From: an uncultured beta proteobacterium
GTDB lineage: Bacteria; Pseudomonadota; Gammaproteobacteria; Burkholderiales; Casimicrobiaceae
NCBI GenBank assembly: GCA_963745385.1
Contig: CAVUXI010000023.1
Span: 5,622-69,621, forward strand
Length of the DNA stretch: 64,000 nucleotides
Reading direction: 5' to 3'
Shown here: piece by piece, positions 42,012-64,000 of the stretch
Layout: every line of letters begins with the position of its first letter
Position numbering within the stretch: position 1 is the stretch's first letter
Position numbers and translations under genes: made by a program
Notes under the pieces: generated by a model
What the model was told of the DNA's origin: nothing
The model's input: only the letters and a program-made list of their open reading frames with translations
The model's database searches: none

Positions 42012-42023
42012 TTCGCAAAACCC

Positions 42024-42587: not shown

Positions 42588-42593
42588 CGGCCT

Positions 42594-43816: not shown

Positions 43817-43845
43817 CGCTAGCGGATCGGAACCCGCGATGCAGC

Positions 43846-45045: not shown

Positions 45046-45176
45046 GCTGTACAGCGAATGAGCCGTATCGCGCAGCGATCGTCGGTGCAGCTCGCGAGGG
45101 CATGCGATACTATGGGTGACGACGAGCAACGCTGCGCGGCAGGCAACGAGACGCTAGCTATTTGATTGACAGTCGA
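45043..45176 (-). mobile_element. MITE-A copy 4, inverted orientation, degenerate (~80% identity with internal deletions)
   Basis: Aligns over its full length to the reverse complement of copies 1-3 (...CGAGACGCTAGCTATTTGATTG-ACAGTC). Overlaps the pobA stop codon. Confidence 0.55.
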
Positions 45177-45237
45177 AGACATGAAACATTGCAGACCGAA
45201 ATCGAAACGTTGATCGAGAAGTCGCATTCGAGCACAG

Positions 45238-46401
45238 ATGAAAAGTACGCTGGCGGGATGGCATTGCTGGCGGCGACGGGCTCGCGCAGGCGCAGGGCGT
45301 CGATCAAGCTGGGTATGGTCGCCGAGTTCTCCGGCCCGTTCGCGCAATACGGCCAGCAGATGCTAGGGCGGCATGAAGGCGTACATGAAGCAGCACGGCG
45401 ACACGCGTCGCCGGCAAGAAGATCGAGATCGTGCAAAAGGACACGACCGGCCCGCGCCCGATGTCGCCAAGCGGCTCGCGCAGGAGCTCGTCACGCGCGA
45501 CAACGTCGACATCCTGGTCGGCTTCGGGCTCACGCCGAATGCGCTGGCGGTCGCGCCGGTCGCGACCGAGGCGAAGAAGCCGATGATCATCATGAACGCC
45601 GCGACGTCGATCATCACCACCAAGTCGCCCTACATCGTCGCGCGTGTCGATGACGCTGCCGCAGATCACGCAGCCGATGGCGCGCTGGGCCGCGAAGAAC
45701 GGCATCAAGAAGGTCTACACGGTCGTCGCCGACTACGGCCCCGGGCTCGACGCCGAAGCGGCGTTCAGCAAGGCGTTCAAGGCGGCCGGCGGCGAGATGG
45801 TCGGCAGCGTGCACACGCCGCTGCAGAATCCGGACTTCGCGCCCGTTCATCCAGCGCGTCAAGGACGCCAAGCCCGAAGCGGTGTTCCTGTTCCTGCCGG
45901 CGGGCGAGCAGGGCATCGCCTTCATGAAGGGTTACAAGGAGCGCGGACTGGCCGAAGCCGGCATCAAGCTGATCGCCACCGGCGACATCACCGACGACGG
46001 CGTGCTCGAAGCGATGGGCGACCCGACGCTCGGGTCTGATCACCAGCTTCCACTATTCGGCGGCGCACGATTCGCCGGAGAACAACGCGTTCAAGAAAGC
46101 GTACGCCGACGCCAACGGCACCAAGCTGCGCCCCAATTTCATGGCGGCGGCGGGCTACGACGGCATGGCGGCGATCTACGAGGCGCTGAAGAAGACCGGC
46201 GGCTCGACCGACGGCGACAAGCTCATGGCGGCGTTCAAGGGAATGAAGATCGCAAGCCCGCGCGGCCCGATCATGATCGATCCGGAGACGCGCGATGTCG
46301 TGCAGACGGTGTACATCCGCAAGGTCGAAAAGACGGGCGGCGGCCTGTACAACGTCGAGTTCGACAAGTTCCCGGACCAGAAGGATCCGGGCAAGACCTG
46401 A
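45238..46401 (+). pseudogene. LivK-type ABC substrate-binding protein, many frameshifts
   Basis: IKLGMVAEFSGPFAQYGQQ, ILVGFGLTPNALAVAPVATEAKKPMIIMNAAT and ...YIRKVEKTGGGLYNVEFDKFPDQKDPGKT are spread over all three frames. Confidence 0.7.
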
Positions 46402-46473
46402 GCCGGTCGCCAACGGGCGGCGAATGCCAACGCGAGGCAATCGCGGCGAGTGACGTCGTGCGCTGAGGTTCGC

Positions 46474-47599
46474 TTACGCGCCGCCCCACACTTCCTGCGC
46501 CGTCTCGACGACCAGGCGCAGCTTCGCCGCCTGCGCCTCGCGCGCGATCTCGTTGCCGTGGACCGTGCTCGAAAACCCGCATTGCGGCGACAGGCAGAGC
46601 TGATCGAGCGGCACGCAGCTTGCGCCGCCTCGTCGATTTTGCGCTTGAGCGCGTCCTTCGATTCGAGCTCGCCGAGCTTGGTGGTGACCAGCCCGAGCAC
46701 GACGGTCTTGCCCTGGCGGGACGAAGCGCAGCGGCGAGAAGTCGCCCGAGCGGGCGTCGTCGTATTCGAGGAAATAGCCGTCGACCTGCAATTCGTTGAA
46801 CAGCACCTCGGCCACCGGCTCGTAGCCGCCTTCGGCGACCCAGGCGCTCTTGAAGTTGCCGCGGCACAGGTGGATGCAGACCGTCATTCCCGGCGGCCGA
46901 TCGGCGATGGCCGCATTGATCAGGCGCGCGTAGCGGCGCGGCAGCTCGTTCGGGATCGTCGCCGCGCTGCCGCGCGCCTTCGCGCATCTTTTCGTCGCAC
47001 AGGTAGGCGAGGTTGGTGTCGTCGAGCTGCAGATAGCGGCAGCCGGCGTCGCCAAGCGCGCGTATCTCGTCGCGGTACGCCGCCGCCACGTCGGCAAAGA
47101 AAATCTCGAGGTCGGGATAGGCCTCGCGGCTGATCGCCTCGCGGCCGCCGCGAAAATGCAGCATGGTCGGCGACGGAATGGTGACCTTCGGCGTGCGCCG
47201 GGTCACCGACTGCAGGAACTTGAAATCGTCGACCTGGATCGGCTTCGACGTGCCGCACCGGCGCGGTGACGCGCATGACCGGCGGCGCGAAATCGACGTT
47301 GCCTGCCGCGCTGTGAAAGCTGACCGCAATGCCGCCCTTGGTTTCGACGCCGGCGAGCTGCTCGAGGAAGTCGATGTGAAAATAGGTGCGGCGAAATTCG
47401 CCGTCGGTGATCCCGCGCAGACCGAGATCCTCCTGCAGGCGGACGACGTCGCGAATCGCGGCGTCTTCGACGTCGCGCAGCTGGCCGCGCGTCGATCTCG
47501 CCCGTTGCGCGCTCGCTCGCGGGCTTCGAGCAATGCGGCCGGGCGCAGGAAGCTGCCGACGTGATCGGCGCGAAATGGCGGGTTCTTGCGTGCTGACAT
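46474..47599 (-). pseudogene. Cobalamin-independent methionine synthase (MetE C-terminal-like) family protein, frameshifted
   Basis: N-terminus PPFRADHVGSFLRP, central ...CIHLCRGNFKSAW and C-terminus ...PQCGFSSTVHGN are split over at least three frames. Confidence 0.7.
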
Positions 47600-47617
47600 G
47601 AGAACGCTTTCAAGAAT

Positions 47618-47658
47618 AGCGAGCGAGGACGCTCATTCAAAACCGAGCCTCGCTCGCT
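47618..47658. promoter_or_regulatory. 11-bp perfect inverted repeat in a divergent intergenic region (candidate operator or hairpin)
   Basis: AGCGAGCGAGG (47618-47628) and CCTCGCTCGCT (47648-47658), separated by 19 nt, between the MetE-like gene and the LivK-type SBP gene. Confidence 0.35.
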
Positions 47659-47685
47659 TGTCAAGAAAACAACCGGAGGATGCAA

Positions 47686-48882
47686 ATGGACAAGATCCCT
47701 TCCCGTAGCCGCAGACGCTTCGTGGCGGGCGTTGCCGCCAGCGCGGTCGCCGTGGCGTGGGCGCCTCGATACGCGCTTGCGGCGGACCCGCTCAAGATCG
47801 GGCTGATTCTTCCGCTTACCGGGCCGTTCGCGTCGACCGGGCGGCAGGTCGAAGCGGCGTGCAGACTTTACATGGCGCGTAACGGCGATTCGGCCGCCGG
47901 CCGCAAGGTCGAGCTTATCGTCAAGGACGACACCGGGCTCGCCCCCGAAACGACCAAGCGCATTGCGCAGGACATGATCGTGCAGGACCACGTTGCCGTG
48001 ATCGCCGGCTTCGGCCTGACGCCGCTGGCGCTCGCCACGGCGCCCGTGGCGACCGAAGCGCAGTATGCCGATGATCGTCATGGCGGCCGCGACATCGATC
48101 ATCCCGCAACGCTCGCCCTTTATCGTCCGCTCGGGGTTCGCGCTGCCGCAGATCACGGCGCCCATCGCCGACTGGGCAGGCAAAGAACAAGATCAAGACC
48201 GTGATCACGCTGGTCACCGACTACGCACCGGGCCTCGACGCGGAGAAGACGTTCGTCAAGCGATTCACCGACGGCGGCGGCAGCGTGCGTCGAATCGCTG
48301 CGCACTCCGCTGCGCAGCCCCGATTACGCGCCGTTCCTGCAGCGCATCAAGGACGCCAAGCCGGAAGCGTTGTTCGTTTTCGTGCCCTCGGGCGAGGGGA
48401 CTGCGGTGCTCAAGCAGTTCGCGGAACGCGGCCTGCGCGAAGCGGGCATCAGCCTGATCTGCACCGGGCGACGTGCTCGACGACGATCTGCTGGATACCA
48501 TCGGTGCAGCCTGCGCTTGGCGTCGTGAGCTCGCACCATTACTCGGCCGCGCATCCTTCGCCGGAGAACAAGGCCTATGTCGAGGGCTTTCATGAAAGCC
48601 AACGGCGGCATGCGTCCGAATTTTCATTCCGTCGGCGGCTACGACGGCATGCATCTGATCTACGAGGCCGTCAAGAAAACCGGAGGCACGGGCGATGGCG
48701 AAGCTCTGGTGGCGGCGATGAAGGGCATGGCGTGGACCAGCCCGAGAGGCCCGATGTCGATCGACGCCGCAACGCGCGACGTGATCCAGAACGTCTACAT
48801 ACGCAAAGTCGAAGCGCGCGATGGCCATTACTGGAACATCGAGTTCGACAAGATCGACAACGTGAAAGACCCCGGCGCGTGA
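47686..48882 (+). pseudogene. Second LivK-type ABC substrate-binding protein (Tat-like leader), frameshifted
   Basis: SRRRFVAGV leader. LKIGLILPLTGPFASTGRQ, PMIVMAAATSII and the C-terminus ...YIRKVEARDGHYWNIEFDKIDNVKDPGA are spread over several frames. GGAGG lies 6 nt before the ATG at 47686. Confidence 0.7.
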
Positions 48883-48904
48883 CGAACGCGCAGAAGCTCG
48901 AATA

Positions 48905-49790
48905 ATGCTTGGCAATCTCCTCGGCGTTCTGTTCGACGGCGTCGCCTACGGCAGCCTGCTGTTCATCATCAGCATCGGCTTGTCGGTGACGATGGGCCTG
49001 ATGAACTTCGTCAATCTCGCCCACGGCGCGTTTGCGATGCTGGGCGGCTACGCGTGCGTGATCGTCATGACGCCGGCTTGGCGTGCCGTTCCTCGCGTCG
49101 CTGCCGATCGCGTTCGCTGGTGAGCGCCGCCGCGGGCGTCGTGCTCGAGCGCACTGCTGTACCGCCGCCTGTATCGCGCGACGCATCTCGATCAGGTGCT
49201 GTTCAGCATCGGGCTCGTTTTCATGTCGATTGCCGGCGCGACGTATTTTTTCGGCTCGCAGCAGCAGCCGGTGCAGCTGCCGGAGTTCCTCCGCGGCCAG
49301 GTCCATGTGCTCGGCCTGGATCTCGGGTCGTATCGCCTGTTCCTGATCGCGGTCGTGGTCGTCGATCACGCTGGCGCTGACGTGGCTGATCGAGCGCACG
49401 CGCTTCGGCGCGGAGATACGCGCGTCGGTCGACAACCAGCAGGCGGCCGCGGGGCTGGGCATCAACGTCTACCGGGTCTTCAGCCTGACCTTCGCGCTCG
49501 GCTCGGGTCTCGCCGGGCTGGGCGGCGGGCTGGGCATCGACGTGCTCGGTCTGGACCCGACGTTTCCGCTCAAATACATGGTGTATTTCCTGCTCGTCGT
49601 CGCGGTGGGCGGCGCGGGCACGATCAAGGGGCCGCTTTTCGCGGCGCTGCTCCTCGGCGTATTCGATGTTGCCGGAAAATATTACGTGCCGCAGATCGGA
49701 TCGTTCGTGATCTATGTCGTGATGGTCGTGATGCTGCTGTCTGTTCCGCGCGGACTCGTGGGCGACGTGCGTGAGGACGGCGCGCAGTGA
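48905..49790 (+). pseudogene. livH: LivH-type ABC permease, frameshifted
   Basis: N-terminus ...MNFVNLAHGAFAMLGGY and C-terminus ...YFLLVVAVGGAGTIKGPL lie in different frames. Confidence 0.7.
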
Positions 49791-50760
49791 ACGGGCGCTT
49801 CCGACGCGCGCGATGGAGCCTGTACGAGATCGGCTTCTGGCTGCTGCCGGTGATTGCATTCTTTCGTGTTTCCCAAGTACCTGACGCTGGGCAGCCAGAT
49901 TCTCATCGCCGGCCTCTTCGCGCTGTCGCTCGATTTGATCCTCGGGCTATGCGCGGATCATCTCTCTCGGCCATGCAGCCTTCTTCGGCGTCGGCGCATA
50001 CACCGCGGGACTGCTTGCCAAGTACGGATGGGACGAGCCGCTGAGCGGTCTGGCTGGCCGCCGCGCTTGCGGCGCGGCCTGGTCGGACTGCTCACCAGCT
50101 TCCTGGTCGTTCGCGGACAGGATCTGACGCGCCTGATGGTGACGCTGGGCATCGGCCTGATGCTTTTCGAGGCGGCGAACAAGGCGTCATCGATCACCGG
50201 CGGCGTCGACGGGCTCTCCGGCGTCGATATGGGCAAGATCTTCGGCGTGTTCTCGTTCGGCATGGACGGCAGGACCGCGTACGTATACTGCCTCGTCGTC
50301 TTGTTCGTCGTATTTCTGTTTGCGCGCACGCTGGTGCGCTCGCCGTTCGGCCTGAGCTTGCGCGGCATCCGTGAGGGCGAGCGGCGCATGCCCGCGATCG
50401 GCGTGTCGGTCCCGAGCGCAAGCTGATCGCGATTTATACCGTCGGTGCCGCCATCGCCGGCATTGCGGGTGCGCTGCTCGCGCAGACGACGCAGTTCGTC
50501 GGCATCGATTCGCTCGGGTTTCCGCGCTCCGCGGAGCTGATGATCATGCTCGTGCTCGGAGGCACCGGATACCTGTACGGAGCGCTGATCGGCGCGGCGG
50601 TGTTCATGCTTCTGCAGGACGTATCTTGTCGAACCTCAACGCCGTGTACTGGCAATTCTGGCTCGGGCTGCTCTTGATCATCATCGTCCTGTTCGCGCGA
50701 GGCGGCCTGATGGGCGGCATCATCGCGCTTAAGAATACGTGGAAAGGAAAGGCACGATGA
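49787..50760 (+). pseudogene. livM: LivM-type ABC permease, frameshifted
   Basis: GTGA overlap with the upstream gene. LivM-like TM segments are distributed over ORFs 49854..50426 and 50371..50760. Confidence 0.65.
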
Positions 50761-51515
50761 CCGTTGCGCTGCGAACCGTCGGGCTTTCGAAGTCGTTCGG
50801 CGCGTTCAAGGCCAACTCCGACATCACCTTGTCGTTCGACGTCGGGCGCGCGCCACGCGCTCATCGGCCCCAATGGCGCGGGCAAGACAACGTTCATCAA
50901 TCTGCTGACCGGAGCGCTGACGCCCAGCGCGGGCGAGGTATTCCTGGGCGAGGAGAGAGTAACGTCACTTGCCGCAGCATTTGCGAGTCAAGGCGCGGCA
51001 TGACGCGCACGTTTCAGATCAACACGCTGTTTCCCGGGGTTGACCGTGCTGGAGTCGGTGACGCTCGCGTGCTGCGAGCGCGACGGCGAGGGATCGATAT
51101 GGTGGCGCACAGTGTCGGCGGCGCGGCGGCAGATCGACGAAGCGCTGAAGATTCTCGCGTTTGCTGCGGCTCGAGCCGGACGCTGCCGTCGAGACGCGCA
51201 ACCTCCCCTACGGCAAGCAGCGTCTGCTGGAGATCGCGCTTGCGCTCGCGACGCGACCCAAGGTGCTGCTGCTCGACGAGCCCGCGGCGGGGATTCCGTC
51301 CGCGGAAAGCGCCGAGCTTTTCAGCGTCATCGCGAGCTTGCCCAAGGACGTGTCGCATCGTCTTCATCGAGCACGATATGAATCTCGTGTTCAAGTTCGC
51401 GGAAAAGATAACGGTGCTCGTGGGCGGCGCGGTCCTGGTCGAAGGAACGCCCGAGGAAATCGCGCGCGACCGGCGGGTGCGCGAGGTCTACCTGGGCGAG
51501 GCGGAGCATGCCTGA
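50757..51515 (+). pseudogene. livG: LivG-type ABC ATPase, frameshifted
   Basis: Walker A GPNGAGKTT (ORF 50764..51003), signature/Walker B LLLDEPAAG (ORF 51161..) and the C-terminus (ORF 50739..51515) lie in different frames. Confidence 0.7.
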
Positions 51516-52210
51516 GCTGCTGACCGCGGCAGGATTGACGGCGGGCTACGGCGACTCGATCGTGCTCGAGGATGTCTCGCTTCGAGATCGCGGAAGGCGG
51601 CAGCCTGGCGTTGCTCGGCCGCAACGGCGTAGGCAAGACGACGCTGCTGCTGACGCTGATGGGGCTCACCCGCCTGAAGCGGGGAAGCATCGTATGGCGC
51701 GGCTCCGATATCACGCGGCTGCCGACATTCCGCCGCGCGCACGCCGGTCTGGGATGGGTGCCGCAGGAACGTTTCATGTTTCCTTCGCTGACGGTCGAGG
51801 AGCATCTCACCGTGGTGGCAAGGCCCGGTGCTTGGGACCTGAACCGCGTCTACCGCATTTTTCCGCGGCTCGAGGAGAGGAAGCGCAACCTGGGCAACCA
51901 ATTGTCCGGCGGCGAGCAGCAGATGGTCGCGATCGCCCGGGCATTGATGACCAACCCCAAGCTGCTTCTGCTCGACGAGCCGATGGAGGGGCTGGCGCCG
52001 ATCATCGTGCAGGAGCTGATGAAAGTCATCGGCGAGCTCGTGCGGGTCGGAGATTTCGCGGTCATCGTCGTCGAGCAGCATGCCCGGCTTGCGCTCGAGC
52101 TCACGGAAACAGCGATCGTGCTCGATCGAGGACGGATTGTCCATCGCGCAGCCAGCGAGGAGCTGCTCGCCGATCCGGCAACGCTCGATCGGCTGGTCGC
52201 GGTCGCTTGA
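51508..52210 (+). pseudogene. livF: LivF-type ABC ATPase, one frameshift near 51575
   Basis: MPELLTAAGLTAGYGDSIVLEDVS (frame 1) then FEIAEGGSLALLGRNGVGKTT...LSGGEQQM...LLLLDEP (frame 2, otherwise intact). Confidence 0.75.
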
Positions 52211-52319
52211 CGCTCGGCGGTCTTTCCACGATTCCAGAGCAAGCGCTCTCGCGGCGCACGCCGCGCGCTGCCTAAGGTATAGTCGCCGCGTTTGCGACGA
52301 CCCCAAGTTTCGGAATTCC

Positions 52320-53192
52320 ATGCAGTTCCTGCTCAAGGCGCTGACGCGTCTGCCGCTGCCCTTGCTGTATCCATGGGGAGCGCTGATCTATTTCGTGGCC
52401 TTTCGCGTCATGCGATGGAGGCGCGATCGTGCCGAGCGCGACATCGCCAACGCGTTGCCGGAAAGAGCGCCCGCGGAGCGCTCGGCGATTCTGCGAAAGT
52501 CATACCGCAATCTCGCCGACACGATCATGGAGTCGTTCTGGGGTTTCGGCGCCAGCGCGGATGCGCTCAAGCGCCGGGTTACATTCGAGAACCCCGGGCT
52601 CGTCACCGAGTGCATGGTCGCGAAGCAGTCGGTGATTCTGCTCACCGCGCACTACGGCAACTGGGAATGGCTATCGCTCGCCGCCGGCGCCACGTTCGAC
52701 ATGACCATCGATGTCGTCTACCAGCCGCAGCGGGTCGCCGCGTTCGACCAGTTTCTGCGCGAAGCGCGCGCGCGCTTTGGCAGCCGCTTCATTCCGCGCA
52801 AGGAGTTCATTTTCGATCTGCTGAGCCGGGCCGGACAGCCGCGGACCTATGCGCTCATCGCCGATCAGACGCCGAAAAAGAACGACCCTCGCTACTGGAC
52901 GCGCTTTCTGCACCAGGACACGGCGTTTTTCGTCGGCGCCGGCAAGATCGCGCAATTCCTCGACGCCAAGGTGCTCTATGTCTCGATGCGCCGCGTGCGC
53001 CGGGGCTATTATTCGGTGACGCTTACCGAGATCGGCGCGCCGCCGTACGACGAGGGCGCCGACGTGCGCATTGTCGAGGAATACGCTCGCTGTCTCGAGC
53101 GCGACGTACGCGAGAGTCCGGCTGATTGGCTCTGGCTGCAGAACAAGTGGAAGATTCCAAAGCCCGCGGAGACGGGGCTTCGCGCACGGTAA
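52320..53192 (+). CDS. LpxL/HtrB-family lipid A biosynthesis (lysophospholipid) acyltransferase
   Basis: N-terminal TM, HX4E motif TAHYGNWEW, family-typical length. Confidence 0.75.
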   Translation: MQFLLKALTRLPLPLLYPWGALIYFVAFRVMRWRRDRAERDIANALPERAPAERSAILRKSYRNLADTIMESFWGFGASADALKRRVTFENPGLVTECMVAKQSVILLTAHYGNWEWLSLAAGATFDMTIDVVYQPQRVAAFDQFLREARARFGSRFIPRKEFIFDLLSRAGQPRTYALIADQTPKKNDPRYWTRFLHQDTAFFVGAGKIAQFLDAKVLYVSMRRVRRGYYSVTLTEIGAPPYDEGADVRIVEEYARCLERDVRESPADWLWLQNKWKIPKPAETGLRAR

Positions 53193-53196: not shown

Positions 53197-53334
53197 TTGT
53201 GCCGTTCCGCAACCAACTTTATAAACTCCGTTCGGCCCGAGCCTGTCGAAGGCCGCCCTGCGGAGCCGTTCATGGTTCGACAAGCTCACCACGAACGGCT
53301 GAAAGTAATGTGGGTTATTGGCGGAACGCCACAC
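53197..53334. repeat. REP-B copy 2 (138 bp)
   Basis: TTGTGCCGTTCCGC ... GCGGAACGCCACAC with the same core as 25729-25900. Fills the whole gap between the convergent acyltransferase and PPTase genes. Confidence 0.7.
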
Positions 53335-54059
53335 TAGGTCGCTAGCCACATCGCGACGGTGGCGATCCATTCCGGCGGGACGGCCGCCGGATAGAGCCGC
53401 CACGCCTCCGGCGTGTAAGGCGGCGGCCCCGCGGTCAGCGCGGGTCTTTCCTGAATGGAAATGTCGATGTCGCGAAAGGGCGCCGACAGCGCATCGCCGG
53501 TCGCTTTGCTCATCGCTTCCTTGCAGGTCCACAGTCGAAGGAAGAGCCGCCGCCGTGGGTCGGTGTCGAGCGCGGCGAGGAAAGCTCGCTCTCGCTCTGT
53601 CATGAATTTGCGTGAAACGCCGTCGACGTTGACTGCGCGATCCGCGCGCTCGATGTCCACACCAACGCGAGTGCCGGAAGAGAGCACATCGGCGATGGCG
53701 ATCAACGCGATCCCCTGCGTGTGGGACACGTTGAAATCGAGATTGCGCGCCGCGGCAAGCTCCGGCCGCCCGCGCCTCCCCGATTTGAGCTCGACGGCGT
53801 TCGGCGCTATTCCCAGCCTGGCGCCCAGCAGAGAACGAAGCGTTGCGCGTCCGACGATCCAGCGGCGGCGCAAAAGCTCGGTGCCGAAGCGCGCCGCTCG
53901 CGCCCGCTCGGCAGCAGAAAGCGAAGCCGCCATCGCGACGACGGCGTGCGAGTCGTCATCGAGGCGGCACAGCCACAGCTCGCAACCGGCTGCGGGCGCC
54001 GGCACGCGAGTGATCGCCTCGCCGGCGGAGCCTGGAACGGACGCCCGAGCGCCCCTCAT
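53334..54059 (-). CDS. Sfp-type 4'-phosphopantetheinyl transferase
   Basis: Motifs FNVSHT, GVDIER and WTCKEAMSKA. Confidence 0.8.
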   Translation of the reverse strand: MRGARASVPGSAGEAITRVPAPAAGCELWLCRLDDDSHAVVAMAASLSAAERARAARFGTELLRRRWIVGRATLRSLLGARLGIAPNAVELKSGRRGRPELAAARNLDFNVSHTQGIALIAIADVLSSGTRVGVDIERADRAVNVDGVSRKFMTERERAFLAALDTDPRRRLFLRLWTCKEAMSKATGDALSAPFRDIDISIQERPALTAGPPPYTPEAWRLYPAAVPPEWIATVAMWLAT

Positions 54060-54126: not shown

Positions 54127-57100
54127 TCACTTCCCGGGCACACGGCAACAAGTTGCGGTCGCCGTCAAATGCGCATCCGCGCCCGAGTTGCTCGCCGAGC
54201 ACAGCCACGCCTGTCCCAGCGCCTTATCAGCGACGAGCTTCATGCTCGGCGAATCGCTGTCGCAACTGCCCGCCGTCAGCTGTATAGCCCGCGGCACATG
54301 CGGGCGACGTCGCGTTGCCCGACGAGCCCGCACCGATGGTCACCGCGCCCGACGTCTGCGTCGTGCATTGCAGCGCCGTCGCATCCGATGAAACGAAATA
54401 GCCCACGACGTCGAAGATGAGGTGCGCCGACAAGGCCGCCGGCATCGCGAAGTAGATATTGTTGCCGGCGACCTGCGGGACCACGTACATCGTCGACAGA
54501 CCCTGGCCATGGGTGTAGTTCAGCGCGACCGTCGACAACGTCGTGCTCAAATCGCTGCTGTCGCTCACGCCGAGGAACGCGTCGAAATTCGGATTGAGTA
54601 TCGTGATGACGATCGCAACACCGAAGATGGAACTGCCCGGCGGATTGGTGAGGCCGCAGTCCGAAGCTGGATTCCCGCCATAGATCCCCCAGTTCCCGCC
54701 AGCCGCGACGTATCCCGGAATCTGTTTCAGCGCTCCGCCGGTGATCGGACCCTGCACGCCGCTGGCTAGCGTCGCATGGCGCGTGTCCATGATCCGGCAC
54801 GGCTCCACCGGCTTGTAGACTAAGTTGCTGGGGCCGGCCAGCCCCGCGGGCGCCGCTATGAAGAATTCCTCCGAGGCCATGGCCGCGACGTACTGGACAT
54901 CTCCGGCAAAGCTCGCGCTCAAGCTCAGCGGTCCTCTCGACGGAACGATGAGAGTGCAACTCGCGTTGCCTTGCGCGTCGGTGATTCCGTTGCATGTCTG
55001 GCCGCCGAGCGAGAAATGGACGGTCGCGCCTGCGATCGCCGTGCTCGGATTTGCCGACGCATCGACCAGCGACGCCACGACCGTCACCGGCTGACCGGCG
55101 ATGCCGCCCGAGGGGCTCAGGTTGAGCGCAAGGAACGTGACGTGTTTCCCGGGCGCCCAGGTGACCGTCGCCGCGTTCGACGTAAAGGTGGAGTTCGCTA
55201 TCGTCGCGGTGGCGGTGACCGTATCATTTCCCGCGAAGGCTCCTGTGTAAGCGATTGTCGCCGCGCCGTTCGCGTCCGTGTTGCCAAGTCTTGTCTGGGC
55301 GTTCGCTCCGCTGACTTCAAAATAAACAGGAGTACCCGCCGGCGCAGTGACATTCTTGAAGGTCGCGGTGAAGCTCTGCGAGGCGCCCTGAAGCGGATTC
55401 GGTGAGACACTCGCCGGAGTCAGCGCCAGGCTCGGCGCCGGATTGGTCGGCACGAAGCCGCAGGGTCCGACGCTCGGTGCGAGCTTGTAGATGGTGTCGC
55501 TGGCGCCTGCATAGAGACATCCGTCAGGACCGATGACCGCGGGTGCGATCGATCCGGTGGCCAGCGTCGTCGATGTAAACGGTTGAGTGGTGACATCGAC
55601 AAGCACCAAGGCACCGCTCTGATGGACCATGAACGACTTCGCCGCACCGCTGGGCAACGCCTGTGCGATCGCGATGCCGTAGTCCGTCGTGATACCGGAC
55701 AGCGTCGTCTGGGTCGGTGGCTGCGGTTGGTCGGTACCGGAAATCCGGATGATCGGCGCGGTGGGATTGTTGAAGTAGCCCGTGACTGCGTATAACGTGC
55801 CGTCCGGCGAGAAGGCCAGCCCGCCGTTCGCCGTCGCGGGCAAGGTCGTATAGACGGACATCGTCGCAGCCCCGGCGGGATCATGGATGCGCCAAAGAGA
55901 TGCGTTGTCGGATCCGGCCCCCGAGCATTGATCGTCGAAGAACAGGTCTCCGCTCAGCGGATCCACTGAGAGGCCGCCCGGACACGTCAGATTGGCGGCG
56001 ACAACACGGAGCTGGGCACCGGTGACCGGGTCGATCTCGATCAGGTCGCCGGTGAAAAAGTTACCCGTTGTCGCGCCGTGAGTGGCATAGAGGCGGCCAT
56101 CCTTCCCGAAAGTAGGCTGGCCCAGCGTCTGGTTCAGATTCGACAGCTTGTTCCCAGCCGCCGCCCCACCACCGAGTCCGAACTCGAAGAGGTCGCCGGT
56201 ACGAAAATCGGCGACGAACACCGGCCCCGACGAGCTGAACGTCGGGTTGGTCGCGCCCGGGCACCCGCCCCAGTTTACGTTGCCGAAGAAAAAGTTTTGC
56301 GCGACGAAGCCATTCGCCCACGGCGTGATCGTATAGCCGGCCCCCGGGGTGGGCGCCGCGCCCACGCACGAGGTGTTGCCGCCGGTGAACGTTACCGTCG
56401 CCGAGCCGGGGATCGGCAAATCACCGTCGGTGACATCGACGGCGGTGTAGGTGACGATCTCGTTGACGTTGTCGGTCGCGATGAACTGGATTTGTCCGTT
56501 CGCGTCCGTAACGGCGGGCGAAGGACCGGTGACGATGGAATGGCCGCTTCCCTGCGAAAGCGTGATCAGCTTACCCGGTGTCGGTCGACTGAGCGCGTCC
56601 TGGAGCGTGACAGTGATCGTGCTGGTGCTGGTCCCGTCCGACGGAACCGTGGTCGGGGAGGCAGCGATCCCTGCGCTTGCCGCCGGTGGCGTCACGAATG
56701 TGATCTTCGGTGTTTTCGTGAGCGTGATCCCGTCAGTCGTGTCGGTGACGGTAAATGTCACGGTTTCCGCGACAGTGTCGGTGACGGTGAATGTCACCGC
56801 GCCGTCGGTATCGTCGGAAGGCCCGCTCGGAGCCGAGACGACGGCGTGGCTTCCGGCATTCGGAGTGAGACTGACGATCTTGCCTGCGACGGAGAAATGG
56901 CTGGCGTCGGTCAGGCTGACCCGCAGGACAGCCTGTGTGGTCCCGTCCGCCGCCGGGAGAAGCGTCCCACCCGCACGGGAAGTCGATGGGTCGACGGGGC
57001 CGATGGCATGGTTGGCGAAATGCGCCAGCAAGTTGTCGAAGTTGGGCGATCCGAGGCCGACGTGGGCGAAGTCCGAGCCCATGCTCGACGCCGAATGGAA

Positions 57101-58939
57101 TGCGTTGGTCCCCGCCAGTGGATAGAAGGCCGGATTCAGTTGGCCGATATTGGATCCCAGCTGCTCGTTGAGGTAGGCCACGATGCCCGCCATCAGTGGA
57201 GCGGCCATGCTCGTGCCGCCGTACAACAGGCCTGTCGGGCAGCCACCCGCATCGGCCTGGCAGATACTGAAGCCCGCCGTCGGGTCGGCCGTGACAGCGA
57301 CGTCTGGAACCGATCGCATCGCCGACGTCGTCAGGCCGTTTTGATAGAGGGGGCGAGCGAAGAAGCGGCTGACCCCGAAGCCGCCCTGACCGGTGGCCGG
57401 GGTGTCACCCGAACCGTCCCACCAAGTCTCGCTGCCATACGTGAAGCCCGGACCAAACGTAGGGGTCGTGCCGCCGACCGCGGTGCTATGGGGCGAGCTG
57501 GCCGGTACTCCGACGGTGTTCGGGCTGCCGTCGAGGCAGGTCGAGCCGCTGTCGCCGCTTCCGTTGATTACGGTGATGCCCGCGGCCGCGGCCTGGGCCA
57601 GGATGGAGTCGATACTCTGGACGTCCGCCAAGGTGTGTTGATCCTCGCACTCCGTCCAGGAGTTGCTGATGACCGTGACGCCATCGTTGATCATGACGTT
57701 GAGCACTTGCTGGAAGCTCGTATTCGGCGGCGCGTCGTATACCACGTAGGTCGTATTCAACGATGGGTCGGCGATCATGACCGTGGCAATGTCGAGGAGT
57801 ACTTCCGACTCCCCCGAGCCGGGACTGCCAGCGCCACCGTTGACGTGCACTTCGCTGAGGTGGCTTGCGAAGAGCGGGTTGCCATGGACCAGACTCAACC
57901 AGCCGCTGATATCGCTCTGATGGAAGGTGTCGAACTCGAGGAGTCCGATTTTCTGCATGTTCGCGTCGCGCGCGGGCTTTTGGGCAATCCGTCTTGCGTC
58001 TGTGGTGGCTGCCAGTTTTTCTTCGAGGGTCTTGTCTCTCGCAGGACTGTTCAGGAAAAAGTTACCTGGATGATTGGACAGGTAGCCCAAGTAGAATCCG
58101 AGGCAATGTCCAATGGCACTCGGCAGAGAAAAATACTGAAACGCGAAGAAGTTGCCGAAGACCACTGAGATCGACGTGATGACGGAAATAAGATCCTGCG
58201 CCTGATCGTAGAGGTTCTGCGGCCCGGGCGGCTGTGCTTGGTGCATGTACGCCTGGAAAAGGCCGACACCCGGGATCAGTCCCAGCGCGTCATTGATGCA
58301 CGCATTCTTGACATCCTGCGGCTTCGTCGTCTTAAGGGGAGCCGCGGGGACTGCGATATTCGACAGGCCTGATACCGACATCACGCTCGCGGCGAGCTCG
58401 GGCGGCAACGCAGGATTGCTGTCGTTCGCATAGAAGCTTTTGTCGTCTATGCGATAGTCACCGATATGCACCGCGAAGGCCTGCTCTGTTTGGACACGTG
58501 AGCCGCGTACCGTGATCGTCAGCCGGTTTGCGGACCCGTCGAGCAGCTCGAATCCGTTGGCGCGCAAGTAGTCCAGGACCTGCTGGTACGCGCCGCTCGT
58601 GGGGCCAAACGTGTCAGCGATCCCGGACTGACTCAGGAAATGCCTGAAAGTCGGTGAGCCCGGGTCGTACACGTCATGGAGATAGCGGTCGAATCCCGCC
58701 TGATCCGAGCGCTGCAGCGTGACCGTGAGCGTCAGCGGCTCCTCGCCGCCCGCGAGCAATTTGGCGCTAGTGGTCGGGAGCTGTGTCGCCTTTGACAGCA
58801 TCGGCAACACGTGATCCGGCAGTTCGACTCGCGTCGATTGTCGAGTATCCGACGACGCTGCGTGCGACGGCCCGAGAAGCAGGAGCAAAGAAAAGAGCGT
58901 TGAAGCGAGCAGCCCGACGGATCGACCGATCTTTCTCAC
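54127..58939 (-). CDS. Giant secreted S53 (sedolisin/kumamolisin-type) peptidase with Ig-like (Big_1-type) repeats, a beta-propeller-like region and the shared CCRVPGK C-terminal module. A frameshift at ~54280 interrupts the last ~50 codons.
   Basis: Signal peptide. Pro-kumamolisin-type propeptide (SPTFRHFLS...FYAND...GLSN). Catalytic motifs SEVLLDI, SGDSGS and GGTSMAAPLMAG. The ORF-track frame stops at 54227. Shifting frame at ~54280 restores ...LTAGSCDSDSPSMKL...HLTATATCCRVPGK, ending at 54127. Confidence 0.8.
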
Positions 58940-59200
58940 TTTGACCCCCCCACGACGTGTATCCCAACACGGCCTACGTATTGCACGAGATGAATCTAAC
59001 GCGAGCTCGGCGGTGTATTTTTAGAAAGTGACGACGATGCTCATCGACTGGCCGGCGCATCCGCGGGACTAAAGTCTCGCCGGGACGTGAGACGTCTGCG
59101 AGACCGCCCTCTGCTGGGGAGCGTAGTGCGCGAGGCCACCGAAGATCAACGCTCGCGGTTCAGAAGCTTTTGCGGGCGACGCTGGACGTGACCTCCTCGC

Positions 59201-59662
59201 TCAGAGAGACGTCACTGAATCAGTAGACATGACAGCGGCGGCTATTGCTGCGGCGTGTTGCCTGTTCTCATGGATGTGCCCGGCAGGCTTATGCGGCGCG
59301 CCGTCGGTCTGCAGCTGACGCTGGATGCGCCCGGCGTTTTGCTTGAGCGTGCCTTCCTGCATCTGCTGCAGCAGCGCGACGTTCGCGGAGAACTCCCACG
59401 GCGTCTGCGACTGCAGCAGGCTCTGTTGCAACATCGGCGGAGCGCCCGCCATCAGGCCTTGCACCTTGGCAAGCCACACCTCGCGGTCCTCGACCACGCC
59501 CGTCGGCGTCGAGGCGAGGCGCGAGGGATAGAAGCGCAGCAGCGGCGCCGCGCTGGGAACGACCTGCGCTTGACCCGTCAGGGCCGGCGGCGCCGCGCTG
59601 GCGGCACTCGCCGTCAGCGGCAGCGCGATCGTCGCAAGGATCATCCAGTTCACTTTTCTCAT
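59201..59662 (-). CDS. Secreted 153-aa protein, paralogous to the N-terminal module of the next gene upstream
   Basis: Signal peptide, RBS GAGAGGA. RFYP..L.S.P.GVVE...VWLAKVQGL.A.AP..LQQSLL.SQTP..F.ANVALLQQMQEG.LKQ is shared with 59694..60800. Confidence 0.6.
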   Translation of the reverse strand: MRKVNWMILATIALPLTASAASAAPPALTGQAQVVPSAAPLLRFYPSRLASTPTGVVEDREVWLAKVQGLMAGAPPMLQQSLLQSQTPWEFSANVALLQQMQEGTLKQNAGRIQRQLQTDGAPHKPAGHIHENRQHAAAIAAAVMSTDSVTSL

Positions 59663-59693
59663 GCGTTTCCTCTCGGTGTCGGCGGCCGGGGGT

Positions 59694-60800
59694 CTACTTG
59701 CCGGGGACGCGGCAGCAATTCGCGGTCGCGGTCAGATTGGCCGATGCACCGGTGTTGAACGCGGAGCAGAGCCACGTCGTATTGCCGCCTGATGCCTCGT
59801 GCGACACGAGCGTCATGCTGGTCGAGGTGCTGTCACAGCTTCCCCCTGTCAACGTGTATCCGGCAGTGCAGGCCGGCGAGGTTGCGGTGCCCGCGCTCGC
59901 CGTAGCTACGGCGACTGGCGCCGAGGCCTGCGTCGTGCATTGCAGCGCGGTCGCGTCGGACTGCACGAAGTAGCCCACGACGTCGAAGATGAGCTGTGCC
60001 GACAATCCCGTCGGCATTGCGAAGTAGATGATGTTGCTGGAAAGCTGCGGCACGATGTACATGGTCGACAGCCCTTGACCATGGGTGTAGTTCAACGCGA
60101 CCGTCGACAGTGTGGTGCTCAGGCTGTTGGCGTCGGACACGCCGAGGAACGCGTCGAAGTTGGGGCTGAGTATGGTGATGACGATCGCGACGGCTTTGAT
60201 GAAGGTTCCCGGCGGGTTCTTCAGCCCGCAATCGGTTGCCGCGCCACCGTAGATGGTCCAGTTGCCGCCGGCGGTAACGAAGCCTGGCAGCAGCTTGAGC
60301 GAATTCCCGGCTATCGGTCCCTGCACGCCGCTGCCCGCCGTGGCGCTGCGCGTGTCCATGATCCGGCACGGCTCCAGCGGCGTGTAAACGAGGTTGGCGG
60401 CGTCGCCCAGTGCGCGCGCCGTCATGGTTCCGCTCTTGGCCTGGCTCTTGAGCTCCGACCCGGCCTGCTTGAGCATGCCTTCCTGCATCTGCTGCAGCAG
60501 CGCCACATTGGCGGCGAAATCCTGCGGCGTCTGGGATGCAAGCAGGCTCTGCTGCAGCACCGACGGCGCCGCAGCGACCAGACCCTGCACCTTCGCGAGC
60601 CAGACTTGCGGCTCTTCGACGACACCGGCGGGCGAGGAAGGAAGCGGCGCAGGATAGAACCGCGCCAGCGGCAATGCGCTGGGGACGGCGTGCGCGCCGC
60701 CCGCCTCCATCACCGGCAGCGGTGCGGCTGCAGCGATGCCGGCCGCGAACGCCAGCGCGATTGCGACGGCGGCTATTCCGTTGCTGTTCGACTTGTTCAT
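59694..60800 (-). CDS. Secreted protein: ~110-aa unknown N-module plus the shared CCRVPGK C-terminal module
   Basis: ATG at 60800 with GGGAGACAGGAAG upstream. The ORF maximum start at 60836 would lie 1 nt from the upstream stop. Signal peptide. C-terminal 233 aa are the shared module. Confidence 0.75.
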   Translation of the reverse strand: MNKSNSNGIAAVAIALAFAAGIAAAAPLPVMEAGGAHAVPSALPLARFYPAPLPSSPAGVVEEPQVWLAKVQGLVAAAPSVLQQSLLASQTPQDFAANVALLQQMQEGMLKQAGSELKSQAKSGTMTARALGDAANLVYTPLEPCRIMDTRSATAGSGVQGPIAGNSLKLLPGFVTAGGNWTIYGGAATDCGLKNPPGTFIKAVAIVITILSPNFDAFLGVSDANSLSTTLSTVALNYTHGQGLSTMYIVPQLSSNIIYFAMPTGLSAQLIFDVVGYFVQSDATALQCTTQASAPVAVATASAGTATSPACTAGYTLTGGSCDSTSTSMTLVSHEASGGNTTWLCSAFNTGASANLTATANCCRVPGK

Positions 60801-60837
60801 CTTCCTGTCTCCCGTAAAAGGACTACTTGGCTTCATC

Positions 60838-63306
60838 TTACTTTCCCGGAACGCGGCAGCAGTTTGCCGTCGCCGTCAAATGCGCTGACGCGCCCAAGTT
60901 GTTCGCGGTGCACGTCCATGTCGTATTGCCGCCGGAGGCTTTGTCCGACGTGAGCTTCATCGTTGTCGAATCGCTGTCGCAACTGCCGCTGTTCAGCGTG
61001 TAACCGGCGCTGCAGGCAGGCGAGACGGCGCTGCCGGTGCTGGCCGCGCCTATCGTCACCGCGCCCGAGGTGACCGTCGTGCAGGCGAGGGCGGTGGCGT
61101 CGGATACGACGAAGTAACCGACCACGTCGAAGATGAGGTGCGCGGACAAGCCAGTCGGCATCGCGAAGTAGATATTGTTGCTGGCGATCTGCGGAACGAT
61201 GTACATGGTCGACAAGCCTTGTCCGTGCGTGTAGTTCAAGGCGACCGTCGACAGCGTCGTGGTCAGGCTGTTGGCATCGCTCACGCCCAGGAAGGCATCG
61301 AAGTTCGGATTGAGGATGGTGATCACCATCGCCACGGCGTAAATGTCTGTGCCGGGCGGGGTCGTGAGACCGCAATCGGACGGCGTTCCCTGCTGGCCGT
61401 ACTGAGTCCAGTTGCCGCCAAGGCTGACGAAGCCTGGGATCTGCTTCAATGCCCCACCCACGATCGGTCCCTGGACGCCGCTGCCCAGCGTGGCGTGGCG
61501 CGTGTCCATGATCCGGCACGGCTCCAGCGGCTTGTAGACCACTGCGCGGGGGTTTGCGGGAACGCAGGATGGAAACTTGAACGAGCCGATGCGGTTATGC
61601 CAGTTGCCCGCGTTGCCGTTCGCCTGCGTATCGTAGTACTCGTTGGTGTACCAGAACGTGCACTCGTCGGCAGGATCGAGACTCATCGAGCTGTAATCGC
61701 CCCAACGATCGCAGGGATTGCCGGGGCCGCCGCAAAAGTTGTTCTGCGACCCGCCGCCGGCGATCATCTGACGTTCAGTCTGGGGCAGGGTATTCAGCGG
61801 ATCGGTCGCAAGCCTGCCCGAATAGGCGATGCTGGGAAAATTCGGCGCGCTTCCGTTCGAGGTCGTGTAGCCAAGCGCCATATTGCCCTGATTGTCGGTA
61901 GCGATGCTGCCCATGAAGCGATAAAGAAAGGTATCGGGTGCATAGATCTGCTGCTGCACGGGTGTCGTCGCGATCGTGCCGCCGCTGACGTTGATCTGAG
62001 CCCACTGCATTGCCGTCGGGCCCGCAGCGGAGCCTACGGGGTGCGTGACCCACAATGATTCGACGGGGCCGATCTTGCGGTACTGCACCTTCTGCATGAT
62101 GCGATCGTCGATCATGTCCAGCGTGTGCGTGGTGTTCGGCTGCGGCACGATGGCACCTGACTGGAAGGTGTAAGACGCCTGGCTGACGTTCACCGGCGCA
62201 CTGAGCGTGCCGCCGCCGCCGCAGTTCGCACCCGCCGCGAATTTCCTGACTTCGAATGCAAACGCTGAGCCGGATTCCGACACGAAGTAATTCGGCGTTC
62301 CGGGCAGCGGTGCATTCGTCCCTTTCGCCTGGTTGTTGCTGGGGATCAGCGTGAAGGCATTGCTTGCGGGACCCAGATAACCCAACGCATAGGTCAATGG
62401 GAGGCCGTTGTACATGTCCGAACGGCTGAACGAGCCAAACGCGACGCCGTCATAGTTGAAGCTGGGCGCGGCGAATTCGTTCACGCCGATATAAAGGCAG
62501 TCGTGCCAGAGCCCGAACTTAGGATAATCATTGAGCTCGCCGACCGGGGGCAATCCTGCGCCGCCCGGGTCCATTCGAATCGCATACAGCCAATACCCTC
62601 CCGCGACGGGGTCGCTCGTTTTGGAAGCGGCGATGCACTGGTAGAACGGACTGAGGGGAGTGAAGTTGGGCGAGCCACTGTCGGCGAAAGCAAACCAGCT
62701 CAACACAAAGCGGTCTGCCAGCCAGTCGTAGACCACGATCGGATCGCCATCGGAATGGCCGTTGCACGGCGAAGAACCCACCCCGCTCCACAGGTTGTTT
62801 TCCGTGAACGACGCGAGCAATGTGCCGGTCTTGCTGTAGATCCCTATCGCGGTATTGACCGCCTCGACGTAATGCTTCGGTCCGACGTCCCCGTTCGGAT
62901 CCGGCGGCCACCCCGAACCGCATTGACCGCCGGTGCAGGTATCGTTGAAGCTCAGTCCGGCGAAGTTCTGAATGGGGCTCGGCATCGGCAAGCGCGGACC
63001 GCCCGGGGGCTGGGGCGCCTCGATCGAGGGCGGAGGCGAGCCCTGGAACTTCGACGATGGCGGCCCGCGCAACAGCGGACGGTAAGGCCGCGGCTCGACT
63101 GTGCTTCTGGGCGCCAGCGGCAGCTTGCTCAAGTCGCCGTTGAACTCCGCCGGGAAAACCTTGGGCTGCGCGTAGGTGACGGCGTCGATCGCGGGATCCG
63201 CAGCACGACTGGGCAAGGAGCCGCACGTGAGTCCCGCAACCGCCAGCAACATGCCAATGCATAGGGTAGATGTTCTGCGTGACCGTGCCACGATTGCAAC
63301 TCGCAT
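60838..63306 (-). CDS. Secreted 822-aa protein: ~580-aa unassigned Gly/Trp/Tyr-rich N-terminal domain plus the shared CCRVPGK C-terminal module
   Basis: Signal peptide, RBS GGGAGACAGGG. N-domain features DPNGDVGPKHYVE and RWGDYSSMSLDP...FWYTNEY. C-terminal 233 aa are the shared module. Confidence 0.8.
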   Translation of the reverse strand: MRVAIVARSRRTSTLCIGMLLAVAGLTCGSLPSRAADPAIDAVTYAQPKVFPAEFNGDLSKLPLAPRSTVEPRPYRPLLRGPPSSKFQGSPPPSIEAPQPPGGPRLPMPSPIQNFAGLSFNDTCTGGQCGSGWPPDPNGDVGPKHYVEAVNTAIGIYSKTGTLLASFTENNLWSGVGSSPCNGHSDGDPIVVYDWLADRFVLSWFAFADSGSPNFTPLSPFYQCIAASKTSDPVAGGYWLYAIRMDPGGAGLPPVGELNDYPKFGLWHDCLYIGVNEFAAPSFNYDGVAFGSFSRSDMYNGLPLTYALGYLGPASNAFTLIPSNNQAKGTNAPLPGTPNYFVSESGSAFAFEVRKFAAGANCGGGGTLSAPVNVSQASYTFQSGAIVPQPNTTHTLDMIDDRIMQKVQYRKIGPVESLWVTHPVGSAAGPTAMQWAQINVSGGTIATTPVQQQIYAPDTFLYRFMGSIATDNQGNMALGYTTSNGSAPNFPSIAYSGRLATDPLNTLPQTERQMIAGGGSQNNFCGGPGNPCDRWGDYSSMSLDPADECTFWYTNEYYDTQANGNAGNWHNRIGSFKFPSCVPANPRAVVYKPLEPCRIMDTRHATLGSGVQGPIVGGALKQIPGFVSLGGNWTQYGQQGTPSDCGLTTPPGTDIYAVAMVITILNPNFDAFLGVSDANSLTTTLSTVALNYTHGQGLSTMYIVPQIASNNIYFAMPTGLSAHLIFDVVGYFVVSDATALACTTVTSGAVTIGAASTGSAVSPACSAGYTLNSGSCDSDSTTMKLTSDKASGGNTTWTCTANNLGASAHLTATANCCRVPGK

Positions 63307-63392
63307 GTCCCTGTCTCCCTTGACTACCCGCGCGCCATCATGCCACTAAATTCGCGCGTTGAAAATTGCGCTTGTTTGCTGGGACCCAGTTC

Positions 63393-64000
63393 TCATTTCC
63401 CGGGAACGCGGCAGCAGTTTGCTGTAGCAGTCAAATGCGCGGAGGCGCCGCCCGCATTGTTCGCGGTGCAGGTCCATGTCGTGTTGCCCCCGGACGCCTT
63501 GTCCGCCGTGAGCTTCATGCTTGCCGAATCGCTGAGGCAGCTGCCGCTGCCAAGCGCGTAGCCCGCGCTGCAGGCAGGCGAGACGGCGCTGCCGCTGCTG
63601 CTCGCGCCTATGGTTACCGCGCCCGACGTAGCTGTCGCGCACGCGAGGGCCGTGGCATCCGATACGACGAAATAGCCGACCACGTCGAAGATGATGTTTG
63701 CTGACAATCCCGACGGCATCGCGAAGTAGATGTTGTTGCCGGCGAGCTGCGGCACGATGTACATGGTCGACAGGCCTTGGCCGTGCGTGTAGTTCAAGGC
63801 CACCGTCGACAGTGTGGTGGTCAGGTTGTTGACGTCGCTCACGCCCAGGAAGGCGTCGAAGTTCGGATTCAATATCGTGACCACGATGGCGACCGCCTTG
63901 ATTGAAGTGCCGGGCGGATTGGTCAGACCGCAATCGGATGGCGCCCCCGGCTGGCCGTACTGGGTCCAGTTGCCGCCGAGGGTGACGAAGCCGGGAATCT
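63393..64000 (-). CDS. 3' part of a fourth gene carrying the shared CCRVPGK C-terminal module (5' end beyond the window)
   Basis: The reading frame is open from the window edge (...IPGFVTLGGNWTQYGQPGAPSDCGLTNPPG...) to CCRVPGK-stop at 63393. The ORF track lists only the part from an internal start codon (63884). Confidence 0.75.
   Translation of the reverse strand, partial: IPGFVTLGGNWTQYGQPGAPSDCGLTNPPGTSIKAVAIVVTILNPNFDAFLGVSDVNNLTTTLSTVALNYTHGQGLSTMYIVPQLAGNNIYFAMPSGLSANIIFDVVGYFVVSDATALACATATSGAVTIGASSSGSAVSPACSAGYALGSGSCLSDSASMKLTADKASGGNTTWTCTANNAGGASAHLTATANCCRVPGK

Follow-up and report, generated by a model that had tools for sequence, protein, structure and literature searches.

A row of secreted proteins with one C-terminal module

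The subject of this analysis is a 64,000-nucleotide stretch of contig CAVUXI010000023.1 from an uncultured member of the Casimicrobiaceae (the window), and in particular a row of genes at its end, several of which encode secreted proteins with one C-terminal module in common (Table 1). A reading of this DNA from its letters alone (the sequence-only reading) had reported six co-directional minus-strand open reading frames (ORFs) here, four of them ending in the same module behind unrelated N-terminal parts, and had proposed the module as part of an undescribed secretion, anchoring or display system. All six ORFs are present in the ORF list at essentially the same coordinates. A tblastn search of the 64-kb window with the module returned exactly four copies, in genes A, B, C and D, which are 72–87% identical in pairwise protein comparison (196–240 aligned residues) and 73–84% identical at the DNA level. 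Alignment of the C-terminal ~235 residues also reproduced the consensus string given earlier, including the terminal CCRVPGK. Sec-type signal peptides are visible by eye in the translations of genes A, B and C, and in that of gene E as well. As 16–27% of nucleotides differ among the four copies, with a synonymous divergence (dS) of 0.57–1.08 and dN/dS of 0.14–0.20, the copies are old paralogues under purifying selection and not an assembly duplication.

Table 1. Genes and features of the array, in order along the minus strand
Feature	Position in window	Strand	Description	Basis
Gene D	63393–64000	minus	3' part only, cut by the window edge; module 63396–63998, ends CCRVPGK	
Gene B	60838–63306	minus	822 aa; Sec signal peptide, ~550-aa N-terminal part, module 60841–61542	ORF list
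Gene B, module domain 1	~61093–61542	minus	Jelly-roll	
Gene B, module domain 2	~60841–61092	minus	Cys-stapled sandwich and tail	
Gene A	59694–60836	minus	380 aa; signal peptide, helical domain (residues ~50–134), flexible linker, module 59697–60392	
Gene E	59201–59662	minus	153 aa; signal peptide and gene A-type helical N-domain, no module	Alignment with gene A
Gene C	54127–58939	minus	~1603 aa if repaired, frameshifted; signal peptide, pro-kumamolisin activation domain, S53 (sedolisin) catalytic domain, Big_1/invasin repeats, beta-rich region, module 54130–54823	
Insertion in gene C module	54275–54285, near 54280	minus	Single-base insertion splitting the module (GGC TAT ACA g CTG ACG), +1 frameshift	
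HetI-type 4'-phosphopantetheinyl transferase	53334–54059	minus	241 aa, no module	Pfam and NCBIfam

The N-terminal parts of the module-bearing genes are indeed unrelated to one another, as had been claimed, while the 153-aa ORF (gene E) proved to be a paralogue of the N-terminal part of gene A. The cargo of gene C is, from its sequence, a Peptidase S53 (sedolisin): Pfam detects the pro-kumamolisin activation domain (PF09286, E 2e-24) and Ig-like Big_1/invasin repeats, and the catalytic region matches kumamolisin, TPP1 and sedolisin chains of the PDB with E values of 1e-27 to 1e-13, these matches covering residues 307–596 of a 620-aa query that begins at protein residue 31. An S53-like orthologue carrying an intact module is found in locus L008 of the related genomes described below. 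The cargo of gene D, sought beyond the window edge, is an S8 subtilase. The full-length protein (P0121, 594 aa; PF00082, Peptidase_S8, E 6e-46) has a module sequence identical to that of gene D and is encoded on the same 70,858-bp contig as P0011, the database protein identical to gene A. The start of gene A is at either 60836 or 60800 (380 or 368 aa), the latter being that of P0011. No Pfam, NCBIfam or PDB match was obtained for the N-terminal ~550 residues of gene B, B-like orthologues of which, with the module, are present in loci L001, L004 and L005.

In the AlphaFold2 model of gene A a small helical domain (predicted local distance difference test, pLDDT, ~83) makes up the N-terminal part, and a disordered linker leads from it to the module. 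ORFs with this N-domain only, like gene E, also occur in loci L001, L002 and L005. Since such ORFs keep the same position after an A-like gene in the related genome MFD02134.bin.1.143 (L001 7813–8202 and L002 11847–12236), gene E gives the impression of a small gene that has been conserved, and not of a leftover fragment.

The S53 gene with Ig-like repeats stands as previously described, except that 58939–54127 is not one intact ORF. As sequenced, it terminates at 54227, and the final ~50 module residues (LTAGSCDSDS...CCRVPGK) are encoded in another frame at 54127–54279, with tblastn matches switching frame at 54269–54279. Elsewhere, from 43.5 to 51.5 kb, housekeeping genes change coding frame every few hundred bases, as judged from third-position G+C (the GC3 signal). 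These flips (43500–51500) run through Liv-type ABC transporter genes and their neighbors, including a livG-like ORF (50739–51515) with a garbled mid-section. The database protein P0121 likewise holds a garbled internal stretch. The contig is thus rich in indels and looks like uncorrected long-read assemblies, and for this reason the frameshift of gene C is probably a sequencing error.

Sequence conservation and predicted structure of the module

The module comprises ~234 residues, modeled by AlphaFold2 from a 71-sequence alignment with a pLDDT of 95 as two beta domains: a jelly-roll sandwich of ~150 aa (domain 1) followed by a seven-stranded sandwich of ~84 aa (domain 2). Among 408 full-length modules, C9, C57, C177 and C228 are practically invariant, and the remaining cysteines vary in pairs. 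C154 and C229 occur together in 399 modules, are jointly missing from 9 and never occur singly; for C188 and C211 the counts are 348 with both, 40 with neither and 20 with one of the two. This covariation implies four putative disulfides, one in domain 1 and three in domain 2. Through C228 and C229 it further implies that the very C-terminal strand is pinned by two of them. Such bonds would mean that the module folds outside the cytoplasm.

Domain 1 has a set of near-invariant residues (P8-C9-R10, D13-T14-R15, G49, C57, N103, D139, G142 and Y143) in a family that is only ~30% identical overall. Over ~480–500 sequences, R10, D13 and R15 are conserved in >99%, D139 in ~98%, and N103 and Y143 in ~93–96%. 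The C-terminus reads CCR[VI]PG[RK] in ~90% of members, and in 229 of 261 the module is the very last part of the protein. The proteins end ...LTATANCCRVPGK straight after a predicted beta-strand, with neither a hydrophobic helix nor a basic tail. Selection estimated over 19 copies is purifying in both domains, with pN/pS of 0.30 for domain 1 and 0.41 for domain 2.

The module matches no well-characterized Pfam or TIGRFAM domain: no Pfam, NCBIfam or PHROG model was found for it in the window proteins (E cut-off 0.1 for Pfam and NCBIfam) or in 82 relatives. Searches of PDB sequences with a single module sequence and with a domain-1 profile gave chance matches only (E ~0.8). Every named member in the databases is annotated as "hypothetical protein", and nothing relevant was found in the literature on the motifs of the module or on a family name. 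The protein family therefore appears to be undescribed, in line with what had been suspected, although a beta-sandwich targeting module on secreted proteins would be of a well-known kind.

Foldseek comparison of the model with the PDB gave no match at E ≤1e-3. The closest neighbor is the fiber-tip sandwich of Bdellovibrio Bd2133 (PDB ID 8ok3), a weak match with E 4e-3, a TM-score of 0.56 on the target and a root-mean-square deviation of 5.8 Å. Other weak neighbors are the gingipain K2 adhesin domain, the ligand-binding domains of Eph receptors and carbohydrate-binding modules (CBMs). Among those with E between 1e-2 and 1e-1 are CBM22, a pectate-lyase CBM, discoidin, the TNF-like lectin Bc2L-C and domain III of Cry1Ac. 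Weak as they are, these PDB neighbors agree in type, being binding sandwiches of adhesins, lectins or fiber tips. In the viral fold library (BFVD) the neighbors include the tips of phage tail spikes and tail fibers, with a single marginal tail-spike match.

Distribution and architectures of the family

A word-indexed search with a single sequence retrieved 182 relatives, nearly all of them metagenome proteins of 355–385 aa, while an exhaustive phmmer search (E ≤1e-3) yielded 663 clusters at 50% identity and a profile search extended the family to 1,543 proteins or more. The members with a name are from metagenome-assembled genomes (MAGs) of Casimicrobiaceae, Burkholderiaceae, Lysobacter and Xanthomonas, from one MAG labeled Verrucomicrobiaceae, and from cultured Arenimonas species. 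A similar domain, with the pattern P-x-R-x-x-D-T-R ... D-V-x-G-Y, is repeated in actinobacterial secreted proteins; no match so named was among the best 120 of the profile search.

The architectures of 488 retrieved members were compiled. The commonest (227/488) is that of gene A, an N-terminal part of ~100–190 aa followed by the module, and a further 159 are complete proteins of ~250 aa that consist of a signal peptide and the module only. Fragments without an initial methionine account for 38 and C-terminally truncated or other forms for 23. Domain 1 is present in tandem copies in 13 proteins (for example P0263). Among these, a 642-aa protein at 9875–11803 of locus L021 has three copies followed by Lcl_C, the C-terminal domain of the Legionella collagen-like adhesin. 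In another 13 domain 1 is internal and followed by a beta-roll, with a C-terminal Peptidase_S74 chaperone in 6 of the 10 examined, as in phage fibers and in the mosaic adhesive trimer (MAT) fibers of Bdellovibrio.

Unrelated secreted cargo does recur in front of the module, but in only 15 of the 488 members (~3%), and the 10 long-cargo proteins examined are all close relatives of the window copies (module identity 63–87%). Their cargo includes S8 peptidases, thaumatin, beta-helix, a Vgb-lyase-like propeller, cadherin-like and PASTA domains, DUF7933/DUF11 repeats and DUF3466. Other fusion partners in the family are Peptidase_S74, collagen, the UspA1 repeat, Lcl_C and Big_3_5, and one relative (P0188) matches a phage tail-fiber PHROG.

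Genomic context

The scan of genome loci, made by alignment of window-like copies, covered the close clade only. Three related MAGs (MFD02134.bin.1.143, Casimicrobiaceae cluster3_bin.1 and Betaproteobacteria BP_29) have their module genes in co-directional arrays, and the local order of a B-like gene, an A-like gene and an N-domain-only ORF is conserved between them and the window. The constant module on unrelated secreted cargo is real, and both this arrangement and the tandem arrays recur in these three other MAGs. One array, on contig_19724 of MFD02134.bin.1.143 (~171–197 kb; L001/L009/L011/L017), has 14 co-directional module genes in ~26 kb, mostly A-like and several of them frameshifted, with a Methyltransf_11 gene and unannotated genes of 334 and 389 aa interspersed.

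When the neighboring ORFs of 21 loci were clustered, no accessory family recurred beside the arrays; the recurring neighbors were N-domain-only ORFs, antisense shadow ORFs and two unannotated families common to two contigs. In two Arenimonas genomes the gene lies at one syntenic locus between serS and crcB, with no machinery nearby at that locus.

A lipid A late acyltransferase gene lies near module genes in the window (52080–53192, plus strand), in L021 (14626–16388) and in L023 (11090–12855). L021–L024 form a syntenic block, unrelated to the window, in which module genes are followed by metK and then by two lpxL-like genes. None of the 17 loci fetched from the three related MAGs (L002–L018) has an acyltransferase gene in this position, and we treat the adjacency as a probable coincidence. 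In L023/L024 a type II secretion system (T2SS) cluster (gspC, G, I, K, L, M, N; positions 1–6343) lies ~1.7 kb upstream of two genes for a signal peptide and the module, with only a beta-lactamase-like gene and a MerR regulator between them. This neighborhood is not found in the related locus L021 or in the loci of the three related MAGs.

Apart from the array, the window has the content of an ordinary chromosome, with a pca cluster, Liv-type ABC transporter genes, the lipid A acyltransferase and the phosphopantetheinyl transferase, whose gene begins 67 nt past gene C. The pca cluster (37369–43412) is a complete-looking beta-ketoadipate block with an IclR regulator, pcaIJ (CoA-transferase), the pcaF thiolase, pcaHG (protocatechuate 3,4-dioxygenase) and a pcaD-like hydrolase. 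The G+C content is 0.58–0.59 between 32000 and 38000 and 0.62–0.67 elsewhere, and no tRNA or Rfam element was detected in the window.

Proposed role of the module

We propose, with a probability that we put at about one half, that the module is an autonomous, previously undescribed two-domain all-beta unit that acts outside the cytoplasm in binding or targeting. In the model, the conserved polar cluster of the jelly-roll and the four putative disulfides suggest a rigid ligand-binding scaffold. The carriers would be exported by Sec and then oxidized and folded in the periplasm, and release, if any, would most simply be that of a folded protein, for instance by a type II system. The module would bind one common ligand in the manner of an adhesin or a lectin, either on the envelope of the producer or on a target such as a polymer or a cell. 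Most carriers consist, once mature, of nothing but the module, by itself or preceded by the small helical domain. In the close clade that includes the Casimicrobiaceae MAGs, the family would have grown by tandem duplication and the module would have been shuffled onto the C-termini of S8 and S53 peptidases and of thaumatin, beta-helix, propeller and cadherin/PASTA cargo, giving a set of exoproteins directed to one place. What the data show directly is the module with its predicted fold, the cysteine covariation, the architectures and arrays, the purifying selection and the lack of known-family matches or linked machinery, while we infer that the module binds, what it binds and how its carriers cross the outer membrane.

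Three features of the architectures make us favor a binding module over a tag. Some four fifths of the members retrieved have the module and nothing else, or only the small helical domain in front of it. Moreover, tandem repeats, embedding in fibers and attachment to enzymes are all seen, and the fusion partners are parts of adhesins and fibers on the one hand and degradative exoenzymes on the other. Sorting tags are not normally the whole mature protein, whereas binding modules typically occur in tandem, in fibers and on enzymes.

Several points weigh against this proposal. The fold matches in the PDB all lie above E 1e-3 with TM-scores ≤0.56, so that the description "adhesin-like" draws on a generic jelly-roll resemblance and on guilt by association. 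A plain binding domain has no obvious need of an extreme C-terminal position, yet 229 of 261 modules have it and end in a near-invariant CCR[VI]PG[RK], and the disulfides do not explain the RVPG[RK] part of that tail. Finally, the lack of linked machinery is weak evidence, since the genes of sorting enzymes often lie at a distance from those of their substrates.

It is the strict C-terminal position and this unexplained tail that keep alive the alternative of a sorting, secretion or anchoring tag, in which the module or its CCR[VI]PG[RK]-COOH end would be read by a dedicated machinery that takes the protein through the outer membrane or attaches it to the cell surface, by analogy with the C-terminal domain (CTD) of the type IX secretion system (T9SS) and PorU/PorV. 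We regard it as unlikely, although it survives better than the other alternatives. The constant module on unrelated cargo in several close relatives, Casimicrobiaceae MAGs included, would fit a tag, as would the resemblance of domain 2 to T9SS CTDs in size (~84 aa) and strand number (seven), a comparison made from general knowledge. Module genes also lie beside a lipid A late acyltransferase (window, L021/L023) and near a T2SS cluster (L023/L024), but the former adjacency is missing from 17/17 loci (L002–L018), and neither the 21 loci nor the Arenimonas locus revealed conserved machinery among the neighbors. Most members have no cargo to sort, being the module alone or with the ~100-aa helical domain, and domain 1 is also found in tandem and internally. 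No sorting-signal model of Pfam or NCBIfam matches, a hydrophobic helix and a basic tail are lacking, and the CC of the tail finds a structural explanation in the disulfides. A secretion, anchoring or display system, as put forward in the sequence-only reading, is thus not supported: the module is usually the whole mature protein, its first domain can be tandem or internal, and no machinery was linked to it at the loci examined.

A more specific version, which we consider improbable, would make the module the substrate side of an undescribed sorting or display pathway of Beta- and Gammaproteobacteria, domain 2 and the free CCR[VI]PG[RK]-COOH being read by a machine encoded elsewhere. That machine would take the protein through the outer membrane, or tether it to this membrane or to lipopolysaccharide, and the module-only proteins would then be surface-displayed adhesins on the same route.

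Domain 1 could instead be a trimerization or head domain, similar to TNF/C1q or to the tips of MAT fibers, with pockets at the protomer interfaces and cargo enzymes displayed as trimers. The closest PDB neighbor is the trimeric Bd2133 tip, Bc2L-C and the globular domain of adiponectin are also listed, and proteins with C1q domains and collagen repeats appear in the viral fold search. The Peptidase_S74, collagen and UspA1-repeat modules of relatives are hallmarks of trimeric fibers as well. The MAT tips of Bdellovibrio are themselves trimers, adhesive by experiment, that bind ligands at their protomer interfaces (PMC10769870). Against these parallels, the fold matches are weak (E 4e-3 or worse), the S74-containing relatives have the domain close to the N-terminus and not at the tip, and tandem copies of domain 1 in one chain fit monomeric binding repeats better. 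A trimeric head is in our view doubtful, and, being compatible with the binding idea, it would be a refinement of the proposed binding or targeting module rather than its replacement.

The stand-alone secreted proteins of 250–370 aa, rich in predicted disulfides, might also be effectors such as toxins, lectin-like bacteriocins or lytic factors, which seems to us a poor prospect. Equally improbable in our judgement is the corollary that the polar cluster of domain 1 is a catalytic or membrane-active site, to which fusion with a peptidase would add a second activity and not targeting. Autonomous secreted proteins in rapidly duplicated tandem arrays, the near-invariant R/D/R/N/D/Y set and weak fold matches including Cry1Ac domain III, Vip3 and XepA would agree with such a role, but what those matches hit are the binding domains of the toxins and not their active domains. 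There is moreover no conserved immunity-like gene next to the arrays, the locus in the two Arenimonas genomes is a syntenic housekeeping one, and selection on the module is purifying and not diversifying.

That the array is an assembly expansion of one gene or a chance similarity, as the indel-rich contig and its one frameshifted copy might suggest, is almost certainly wrong and was rejected on the divergence between copies reported above (dN/dS <0.21), the different N-terminal part of each and the same-order orthologous arrays in independent MAGs of other projects.

If the module does act in binding or targeting, the identity of its ligand would show where the enzymes work: on the surface of the producer, on a polymer or on other cells. 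The family is sizeable, with 1,543 or more proteins in the profile search and 663 clusters at 50% identity in the exhaustive one. It lacks a model in Pfam and NCBIfam, and neither a solved structure nor a studied member was found. Its hosts are soil and freshwater Beta- and Gammaproteobacteria, among them cultured Arenimonas, which makes it accessible to experiment. In the window and its close relatives the module marks a set of secreted peptidases and other exoproteins, encoded in arrays of a dozen or more genes (14 in one MAG), and the near-invariant C-terminal heptapeptide could yet reveal a processing or sorting step.

Comparison with known systems

The sequence-only reading had found no resemblance between the module and the secretion or anchoring tags familiar to it, and profile searches agree. 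The T9SS CTD is similar in organization, being a constant C-terminal beta-sandwich on many unrelated secreted proteins of one genome. In contrast, the module here has 234 residues and four putative disulfides and is usually the whole protein. No T9SS CTD profile (PF18962/TIGR04183) matched the four module-bearing proteins or 82 relatives, and neither the window nor the fetched loci showed a T9SS gene. The named hosts (Casimicrobiaceae, Burkholderiaceae, Arenimonas, Lysobacter and Xanthomonas) are by their database names Pseudomonadota, and not Bacteroidota or other members of the Fibrobacteres–Chlorobi–Bacteroidetes (FCB) group. The layout of sortase, exosortase and rhombosortase-type signals (LPXTG, PEP-CTERM, GlyGly-CTERM, MYXO-CTERM), with a motif, a transmembrane helix and a basic tail, is not present, and NCBIfam gave no match to them. 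Autotransporter beta-barrels are C-terminal, 250–300 aa long, 12-stranded and poor in cysteine; Pfam detected none (PF03797), and the model shows two sandwiches with eight conserved cysteines. Neither was there a Pfam match to the PPC or P-domain (PF04151/PF01483), and most carriers are not peptidases.

The tips of MAT fibers (Bd2133, 8ok3) are the best fold neighbors in the PDB. In Gram-negative bacteria they are C-terminal beta-sandwiches whose carrier proteins vary, as is predicted for the module, and some of its relatives also carry the beta-roll and Peptidase_S74 parts of such fibers. The similarity is nevertheless weak, the domain is N-proximal in the S74-containing relatives and not at the tip, and a constant C-terminal module behind a variable N-terminal part is the reverse of the arrangement in MATs.

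CBM, lectin and adhesin modules would be like domain 1 in the jelly-roll of ~150 aa that is predicted for it and in its putative extracytoplasmic location. They resemble it also in a position C-terminal to unrelated catalytic domains and in tandem repetition, and they recur among the weak Foldseek neighbors. The module differs from them in having no sequence or profile match to any such family, in the pairing with a second, Cys-stapled sandwich and a CCR[VI]PG[RK] end, and in the lack of an enzyme in most members. Dockerin and the lysostaphin-type SH3b domain are unrelated to the module in fold and sequence, but they are alike in logic: one targeting module common to many secreted enzymes brings them to one location.

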